Origin: Octopus vulgaris
Lineage: Eukaryota
Direction of reading: 5' to 3'
Length of the DNA stretch: 64,000 bases
NCBI GenBank assembly: GCA_951406725.2
Contig: OX597818.1
Span: forward strand, 72,106,001 to 72,170,000
The notes beneath the pieces were generated by a model that was not told the DNA's origin, searched no databases, and worked only from the letters and a program-made list of their open reading frames with translations. Shown in pieces: positions 46,556-48,179 of the stretch; positions within the stretch are counted from its first letter, which is position 1; each line of letters starts with the position of its first letter. Both the position numbers and the translations under genes were made by a program.

Positions 46556-47240
46556 ATAATCCATATTTTTATTGCTCTTTCTTTTGTCTTGCTCGATTAC
46601 GTTTTGGTCGTTTTGCTAAATTTTTCTTGAGAACATTTCTTAGTGGTAAGACCATAGCGGATCTATTTCTAGCATAAGGGTGTCCACATAATGGTTTCCT
46701 TCTAATATGTATTTAATACAATTTCACTGAGCCTTCAGTTTTTTATATGCTAGACCACTGATGTGAAATCGATGTTAATTTAATTAATATCTAATTTCTC
46801 ACACTCATTATATATTACGGAGATGTACTTGCATAGCCAGTGACTTGATCTGAGATCGTGTGCTAGAACGAAAACAATTGCAGCGTGGAAGGTGTTTATA
46901 AGCCATTTAAGAAACACACAAAAACCGTTAGGTTCACTTCAACATTTAAACACCTTCCACGCTGCAATTATATATATATATATATATCACAATCAAGGAA
47001 CGGCCATAATAGGCCATTCACCCACTAGAAATAACAGGCAAAGCTTCAACCGCAAAATAACATTAATTCCGCAAACCAGGAGAAAATTAAAAAACATTTA
47101 CCCTGTAATTTATTATACGATGCACCGTTTCATCTACTGTTTAATGGTAAACTAACCTGATTAAATTAAATCAAGCCAATCTTCCATAGGCCCTTAGATT
47201 CGTCAGTAAGAAATAGCCAGATCGGAACAGATATTCAAAC

Positions 47241-47369
47241 AACAAACGTTCGACCATCAGTAGCCGTGAGGTGCAGACTGCTGTCCGTCTTCTCCTTCCT
47301 GGTGAGTTGGCCAAACACGCCGTCTCTGAGGGTACCAAGGCCGTCACCAAATACACTAGCAGCAAATAA
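47241..47369 (+). pseudogene. H2B: Histone H2B C-terminal fragment (42 codons plus stop, no N-terminal part)
   Basis: Translates to [42 protein letters not shown], the canonical H2B C-terminus. Confidence 0.95.
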
Positions 47370-47406
47370 ACCTGCTTAGTTTCTCTTCATCTGTTCCGAT
47401 CTGGCT

Positions 47407-47513
47407 ATTTCTTACTGACGAATCTAAGGGCCTATGGAAGATTGGCTTGATTTAATTTAATCAGGTTAGTTTACCATTAAACAGTAGATGAAACGGTGCA
47501 TCGTATAAGAAAT
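47407..47513 (+). ncRNA. Type I hammerhead ribozyme, canonical core (mirror copy at 47108-47214, minus)
   Basis: atttctta CTGACGA atcta..tagat GAAAC GGTGCATC GTA taagaaat. Helix I is 8 bp and the helix II base is 5 bp. Predicted cleavage is after 47505. Confidence 0.85.
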
Positions 47514-48179
47514 TACAGGGTAAATGTTTTTTAATTTTCTCCTGGTTTGCGGAATTAATGTTATTTTGCGGTTGAAGCTTTGGCTGTTATTTCTAGTGGG
47601 TGAATGGCCTATTATGGCCGTTCCTTGATTGTGATGTTGAACTTATAAATGGTCTATGACTATTTAATTTTTTCCCACTAGGCCGCTGGTGGCAAAAAAA
47701 TTCTACAAAATTTTTTTGCCACCCTATATTGATTAATTATATATATATATATATATATATATATATATATATATATATATATATATATATATATATATAC
47801 ATACATATGTATGTAAGTATCTATGTTTGTATGTATGCACGCTTATTTGTGTACGTTTGTGTGTGTGATTGTCTCATTGCCTTGACATAGGGCAATAGTT
47901 TCAAGCAAGTGACAATTTCAGGCAAGAAGTGTTCTTTGTTTTCATGCACCATTTTCTCTCATTAATAGAACTGTCGGCATTTCTGATGACATACATATGC
48001 AGTTATATATATATATATATGTGTGTTTGTGTGTTTGTGTGTGTGTATGTATGTATGTATGTATGTATGTATGTATATATATATATATATATATATATAT
48101 GTGTGTGTGTGTGTATGTGTGTATGTGTGTATGAATGTATGTACGTGTATGTATGTGTGTATGTGTGTGTGTGTATATA

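Follow-up and report, generated by a model that had tools for sequence, protein, structure and literature searches.

A histone H2B fragment at the inversion seam of a putative Penelope-type retrozyme copy in Octopus vulgaris

The window analysed here is a 64,000-nt stretch of the Octopus vulgaris genome (2.8 Gb), taken from the forward strand of OX597818.1 at 72,106,001-72,170,000 (contig C5 in our numbering), and all coordinates below are window positions unless another locus is named. Two inverted arms of 247 nt each, at 46986-47232 and 47389-47635, differ by 2 mismatches and are separated by 156 nt, just as an initial annotation of this DNA had described them. Alignment to a repeat unit places the true ends further out, at 47235 for the left arm, which is 250 nt long, and at 47740 for the right arm, which covers 352 nt of the unit. 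The left arm (46986-47235, minus strand) runs from unit position 486 to 247, where its outer end, end A, adjoins a (TA)n target tract at 46969-46985; the right arm (47389-47740, plus strand) runs from unit position 1 to 352, where end B adjoins a second (TA)n target tract at 47741-47801. The right arm shows 0 substitutions relative to a reference unit taken from locus L002, and the left arm shows two, at unit positions 121 and 195. A hairpin and a short motif lie just before the fixed outer end at unit position 247 (end A; 47602-47635, plus strand), as located by end mapping and folding, and the 105 nt from end A to end B (47636-47740, plus strand) form a tail that is present on one arm only and contains a hairpin at 47688-47723 ahead of end B. 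The locus consists of two partial units with no tandem, has no ORF of at least 140 aa over it, and lies in DNA with a GC content of 0.35 (46001-48000). The left (TA)n tract is also the TA end of a separate repeat of very high copy number, seen as an inverted repeat at 46871-46967 and in the depth over 46832-46963 in four public runs; the element was inserted into the TA tract of this repeat, which also has a match near a GIY-YIG fragment in locus L289.

Between the arms lies a foreign insert of 153 nt (47236-47388), made up of a 3-nt filler at the seam with the left arm (47236-47238, plus strand), absent from both the donor described below and the unit at that point, and 150 nt of histone H2B. 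Counted with the three bases that it shares with unit positions 1-3 (a microhomology at 47389-47391, plus strand), the H2B piece spans 47239-47391 on the plus strand and comprises codons at 47241-47366, the stop codon TAA at 47367-47369 and 22 nt of 3' UTR. The last 42 codons and stop of H2B had been read from this loop without disabling mutations, and we confirmed this, with 42/42 residues identical to residues 84-125 of the intact protein. Over 153/153 nt the piece is identical to the gene at G000:C29:20368050, down to a UTR base that sets this gene apart from its neighbours, and a 24-mer across the H2B-UTR junction occurs exactly only in the window locus and in this donor. The donor is an intact 125-aa H2B gene located next to an H2A gene on another chromosome, with a normal stem-loop 33 nt past its stop codon and without a retrozyme. 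The captured piece ends 22 nt past the stop codon, 10 nt short of the position of the donor stem-loop, exactly at the 3-nt microhomology, and the reported lack of a histone 3' stem-loop after the H2B stop was likewise confirmed with a pattern that we take to describe this element. With no start codon, residues 1-83 missing, an in-frame stop upstream and no 3' stem-loop, the piece is not a functional replication-dependent H2B gene. When it was used as a query, two orphan H2B fragments in unrelated settings were retrieved: an older one in L291 (G000:C15:47953330; 91.5% to the donor), which ends at +25, short of the stem-loop, inside another repeat, and an internal one in L298 (G000:C13:10876158; 94.6% to the donor).

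Each arm carries a hammerhead motif. The copy in the right arm (47407-47513, plus strand) is a fully canonical type I hammerhead with stems of 8, 5 and 3-4 bp, an insert of ~58 nt in loop II and a predicted cut after 47505 (unit 117|118), that is, at the distance of about 136 nt past the H2B stop codon that had been proposed for the plus strand. The copy in the left arm (47108-47214, minus strand) keeps an intact core, and the initial description of both arms as canonical fails for it only in stem I, where a single C.U mismatch at 47112 let it escape our strict motif scan, run with what we presume to be the hammerhead consensus. A search with Rfam gave no hammerhead match at the gathering score, nor at E<=5, probably because of the insert in loop II. 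Nevertheless, we accept the hammerhead as real on the strength of the motif scan and of conservation over 339 family copies, which were de-duplicated via their flanks and may still include some duplicates. In these copies the core positions are 0.2-0.4% non-consensus, and the free core position varies over all four bases; the base at the cut site is A in 244 and C in 94, without a single G; and one pair of stem II covaries, being A-U in 279, G-C in 39 and unpaired in 21. In folding predictions, the pairing probability was low for stem III (0.01-0.06) and ~0.3 for stem I. For RNA read through the whole locus, the predicted fold pairs 245/247 arm bases arm-to-arm and leaves stem I with a probability of 0.000, so that by this prediction the hammerhead cannot form in read-through RNA of the fold-back; such RNA could possibly be a long hairpin if the locus is transcribed.

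Both arms correspond to portions of a 488-nt unit which occurs in the genome both in tandem arrays and as dispersed copies (175 unit matches, from 40 scored of 1013 candidates in a genome search). This short tandem repeat is non-coding, low in GC, dispersed in many copies and equipped with one type I hammerhead per unit, all of which are features of non-LTR retrozymes, while the inverted, 5'-truncated copy, the tail at one end and the microsatellite or AT-rich target are those of PLE-type insertions. Judged by these sequence features, the family appears to be a non-autonomous, Penelope-type non-LTR retrozyme with hundreds of (TA)n-targeted copies, in agreement with the initial suggestion of a PLE-type retrozyme as the carrier. 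Its copies end at two fixed sites, A (unit ~247) and B (unit ~352), with a hairpin before each and (TA)n after each; exact junctions number 422 for A+TA and 602 for B+TA genome-wide, and reversed controls number 0. Fold-backs with both ends visible have TA on both sides in 144/153 cases, one of the two sides being ascertained, since most loci were sampled by an end+TA pattern.

Units within arrays are near-identical in L066 (0-1 substitutions) and differ by 1-10 in L002, L069 and L007, possibly reflecting circular versus multimeric linear templates, or age; the near-identical units of some arrays (L066, L068) would fit copying round a circle. At L068:2874-3120, the innermost unit, which comes after four identical ones, has 7 extra substitutions, of which 5 are G to T, and both changes in the left arm of the window locus are also at G, which suggests damage or error close to the cDNA end. 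A related retrozyme family, 76-88% similar over parts of the unit and also folded back, is present at L211 and L236, and the L211 hammerhead keeps the fold with different stems. Elsewhere in the window, a further hammerhead-like motif, seen by eye, runs into (TA)n at 46236-46325 and has a relative that is head to head with the retrozyme at L067.

We annotated 229 overlapping loci, namely those from the unit search and those retrievable from the first 100 listed matches per end pattern (mostly on contigs C1-C4). Among them are 159 distinct junctions of the head-to-head kind; non-inverted copies number at most 48, an upper bound that includes fold-backs with very short arms. The double-hammerhead fold-back, which had been presented as special to this locus, is the usual form of the family. 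Classification of the 159 junctions by their outer ends gave 137 A+B, 1 A+A and 0 B+B, with one irregular end in 15 and an end out of view in 6. If the ends were chosen independently, about half of the pairs should be alike, and yet 137/138 are mixed (p 4e-40). In 11/137 A+B junctions the arms have no common sequence at all, meaning that neither was copied from the other and that both were templated separately. Self-copying of a hairpin as the general cause of the fold-backs was rejected, being impossible for these 11 and faced with a longer arm that may be either one (A in 42, B in 95 of the 137); it may still apply to some of the other junctions. The A+B pairing points to asymmetric twin priming, since cDNAs started on opposite strands yield such an arrangement, as in LINE-1 twin priming (PMC2912911, PMC13174262). 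We rate at about even the broader proposal that PLE integration itself works in this way, with site A used on one nicked strand and site B on the other, the two cDNAs then being joined and either of them being able to pick up another RNA. From the identity between arms, one template RNA could not be told apart from two: per 100 nt, the arms of one locus differ by 0.57 substitutions, an arm and the nearest one at another locus by 0.37, and random pairs by 4.66.

The inner ends of the arms are also unevenly distributed. They fall at unit 118-142 in 59/318 cases, where 16 are expected, and at 93-117 in 8; among A arms that reach position 142, 24/111 stop in the 118-142 window and 3/87 in the next. 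The cluster starts at the predicted hammerhead cut (117|118), which suggests that some templates were hammerhead-cleaved RNAs; pausing of the reverse transcriptase at structure could produce such a cluster too. Most arms read through this site, both arms of the window locus included. The two inner ends of a junction lie within 10 nt of each other in 37/159 cases (shuffle mean 9.6, max 21), and those of the window locus, at unit 486 and 1, stop 3 positions apart.

At the seams themselves, we found microhomology in 72 of the 159, blunt joins in 15, 1-49 nt inserted in 66 and at least 50 nt inserted in 6. Two of the six long inserts derive from the unit, three were judged by eye to be low-complexity copies, local or iterated, and the H2B piece is the only foreign one; as the locus was selected for this piece, a figure of 1/159 overstates the rate of capture. 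Iterated local fillers of 29-105 nt occur at L143, L214, L231 and L247. Other unusual copies were noted during annotation. At L243:856-1220, the retrozyme is joined without a TA spacer, in the same sense, to another repeat, with a clear hammerhead there, and at L242:326-1250 and L067:1370-1545 the retrozyme is apparently head to head with other repeats, again without a TA spacer, with hammerhead-like motifs there that were seen by eye only and missed by the scan. These three loci are candidates for mixed-RNA insertions by twin priming, if the asymmetric twin-priming reading is true. At L015:1261-1435, a young copy is separated at its 5' end from the TA tract by ~175 nt of a mariner-type transposase, with a best match elsewhere of 93.6%. 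As evidence of capture at the 5' end, L015, L067, L242, L243, L173, L028 and L258 were set aside, being indistinguishable from pre-existing flank without empty alleles.

Taking the anatomy of the locus together with that of its family, we consider the H2B-bearing fold-back to be, as far as can be read from sequence, a recent, single-copy and non-coding chimera, and we favour as its probable origin an isolated template jump to histone RNA in the course of insertion, in line with the initial suggestion of template switching. A Penelope-type RT/endonuclease acting in trans would nick the two strands of a (TA)n target, and two cDNAs would be primed on retrozyme RNA, one from end B (unit 352) and one from end A (unit 247), to extend toward each other and be joined head to head, as in most family copies. 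At the window locus the two cDNAs would have halted almost level with each other on the unit (positions 1 and 486). The B-primed cDNA would then have jumped via the three matching bases to an H2B RNA with a 3' end probably ~22 nt past the stop codon; after 150 nt of H2B had been copied, 3 filler bases would have linked the product to the other arm, with host repair sealing the seam. The hallmark of a template switch, a unique donor with a 3-nt microhomology at the switch, is present. As H2B is intronless, RNA and DNA templates are not distinguishable from the piece itself, and its orientation is uninformative because in a fold-back it is sense to one arm either way. We favour RNA because the transcribed regions of H2B are a tiny part of the genome (~8e-6) and lie here on another chromosome, and because the piece ends in the zone of decay intermediates, which in mammalian histone mRNA are described, in the accessible part of PMC4478355, as accumulating from 15 nt past the stop codon. 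The captured RNA may itself have been such an intermediate. Histone mRNA is plentiful in dividing cells. The older orphan piece in L291, with its end at +25, also speaks for the template jump, as does a PLE protein that in vitro nicks and extends each strand from two start sites bounding the tail (PMC11167929). Against the template jump stand its status as a single case, at a locus chosen for it, the 2/247 differences between the arms despite their recent look, and three points described below: seams not spanned among the listed pieces of the public runs, no pLTR-linked autonomous PLE among 30 loci, and the in vitro results of Frangieh et al. (PMC11167929).

The strongest competitor, which we regard as clearly less probable and still a serious contender, keeps the twin-primed insertion and has the gap closed by a host repair polymerase that copied the histone locus in trans, as DNA or R-loop, via the 3-nt microhomology. 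Iterated fillers are typical of end-joining repair, and those at the four loci listed above resemble the work of this host pathway, which could have been the agent of the H2B capture too; microhomology with a short filler also fits end-joining, and the orphan pieces at L291 and L298 indicate that histone scraps are taken up without a retrozyme. On the other side, a DNA donor would be a tiny target on another chromosome, and the piece falls entirely inside the mature mRNA, its end lying in the zone given for decay intermediates in the accessible part of PMC4478355.

An origin in two stages, in which a palindrome with a near-blunt 486/1 junction formed first and was later broken as a cruciform and patched with H2B cDNA or DNA, seems improbable to us. 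The arms are indeed 99% complementary over 247 nt, and near-blunt junctions are common in the family, but the parts look equally young, with 0 substitutions in the right arm and 0/153 in the H2B piece, and no such patch occurs at the other 158 junctions.

We also considered, as a very unlikely source of the junction, a chimera of assembly or reads. In four public contig-type runs out of 24 listed, which do contain the retrozyme family and native H2B, the chimeric junctions were not spanned among the pieces listed (32 of 23,367 pieces; 24 of 215 loose ends), and the loose ends listed continue into native H2B or native unit. However, these runs need not come from the assembled individual, and contigs drop rare paths. 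The insertion may be private or polymorphic. In addition, the outer ends of the locus follow the A+B rule of the family, the filler and microhomology at its seam resemble those of other junctions, and the donor allele is that of one specific gene.

Descent from a retrozyme within the 3' UTR of a histone gene, with the hammerhead generating the RNA's 3' end, or RNA ligation at the hammerhead cut, is scarcely credible: the cut site does lie 136 nt past the stop codon on the same strand, but ligation at the cut fails on position, the junction being at unit 1 and 116 nt from the cut site, the chimera that had been imagined as a possible multicopy family proved single-copy in a genome-wide search, and none of the 19 H2B loci tested (out of 40 H2B matches; 10 further ones were viewed over short flanks or one 4-kb stretch only) carries the unit downstream, the only unit-like match among them being 25 nt at E 0.007. 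The donor ends in its own normal stem-loop, and a piece with no start codon and with residues 1-83 absent, whose arms pair with each other in the predicted read-through RNA, offers no support for a ribozyme forming a histone 3' end, as had been envisaged.

A candidate source of the enzyme is at hand in PLE copies with a 781-aa open frame (RT, Cys-rich linker and GIY-YIG), which are numerous in the genome (e.g., L267 and L272). The PLE at L267 ends in (TA)n. In 30 of the 148 matched GIY-YIG loci (6136 candidates, 150 scored), no autonomous PLE was found whose pLTR resembles the unit. The window itself contains further repeats. A frame at 7080-7718 resembles, by eye, a PLE linker and the start of GIY-YIG, with no Pfam match, and a Tc1-type transposase fragment lies at 17476-17955 (PF01498, E 9e-18). 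An inverted pair of 136 nt at 87% (48722-48857 and 49081-49216) and a direct pair with ~350-nt spacing (44621-44733 and 44970-45084) are possibly other families of retrozyme type.

The histone scrap at the seam is probably a one-off accident and probably inert, with no function indicated. If asymmetric twin priming is true, the window locus would preserve the trace of a reaction in which three segments took part (retrozyme, histone mRNA decay intermediate, retrozyme); the 137:1:0 rule would let the origin of inverted pLTRs and one-sided tails be read from the genome, and the clustering of ends at the hammerhead cut would do the same for cleavage in vivo. The family gives an indirect sign of hammerhead cutting in vivo, which PMC11167929 could not find for its own element. 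More broadly, host sequence can enter a retrozyme insertion at its seam, a minor route to the dispersal of gene fragments and, if transcribed, to long hairpin RNA. The hundreds of young insertions also form a natural data set on PLE integration, and the prediction of one start site per strand is testable in the in vitro system of PMC11167929.

It has been proposed that non-LTR retrozymes derive from PLEs and are non-autonomous (Cervera and de la Pena 2020, PMC7229834; Li et al. 2026, 10.64898/2026.07.22.740005), with descent from PLE pLTRs argued in the latter, as far as these texts were accessible. The Octopus family shares with the animal non-LTR retrozymes described there low-GC, non-coding tandem repeats, a type I hammerhead per unit and many dispersed copies. 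In contrast, its unit of 488 nt is slightly longer than the 150-450 reported in the accessible part of PMC7229834, and most of its copies are folded back, end at two fixed sites and have (TA)n as their target, whereas the accessible portions of the two main texts mention no inverted copies and that of Li et al. mentions neither capture nor template switch.

Insertions of EN+ PLEs provide a closer parallel, with an inverted 5'-truncated copy, a tail at one end and microsatellite or AT-rich targets (Craig et al. 2021, PMC8557442, accessible part), and with two RT start sites bounding the tail and an enzyme that in vitro nicks and extends both strands (Frangieh et al. 2024, PMC11167929). The tail there is 30-40 nt according to the sources as accessible, against 105 nt in the Octopus retrozyme, which has no ORF. 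Arms that each use a different one of the two start sites so strictly (137:1:0), and arms with no common sequence, are not described in the accessible parts of PMC8557442 and PMC11167929. In vitro, Frangieh et al. saw no strand difference in start site; in their study insertion did not require the hammerhead, and no RNA ends were detected at its cut (PMC11167929). An inverted copy with a one-sided tail is itself a known PLE form (PMC8557442, PMC3846280, accessible parts), the accessible part of PMC8557442 stating the origin of PLE inverted terminal repeats with a tail at one end as open. The self-priming proposed for PLE inversion by Arkhipova 2013 (PMC3846280), as set out in the accessible part of that article, does not fit the 11 junctions of the Octopus family whose arms have no common sequence.

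The capture of host sequence by PLEs is already known from the Penelope elements of Adineta vaga (Arkhipova et al. 2013, PMC3846280), and RNA chimeras are known from LINE-1 (PMC13174262), to judge from the accessible parts of both articles. In the former, too, PLE machinery moves or captures host sequence framed by element ends, but the accessible text describes an intron-containing gene between direct pLTRs with TSDs, whereas the Octopus locus holds a 150-nt 3' fragment at an inversion seam, with the donor known at 100% identity. Within the main texts covered by our literature search, largely of non-subscription sources, no retrozyme with a piece of host mRNA at an inversion seam was found, nor was twin priming applied to PLEs. 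LINE-1 shows comparable events, namely foreign RNA placed at the 5' end by template switch, RNA ligation or twin priming, and microhomology at inversion junctions (PMC13174262, PMC2912911, accessible parts). LINE-1 belongs to a different class of retroelement, in which, according to the same partial sources, 5' inversions make up ~10% of copies and arise from variable internal priming. In the Octopus retrozyme, by comparison, inversion is the majority form and uses two fixed sites, and the foreign piece sits as a third segment between two element arms.
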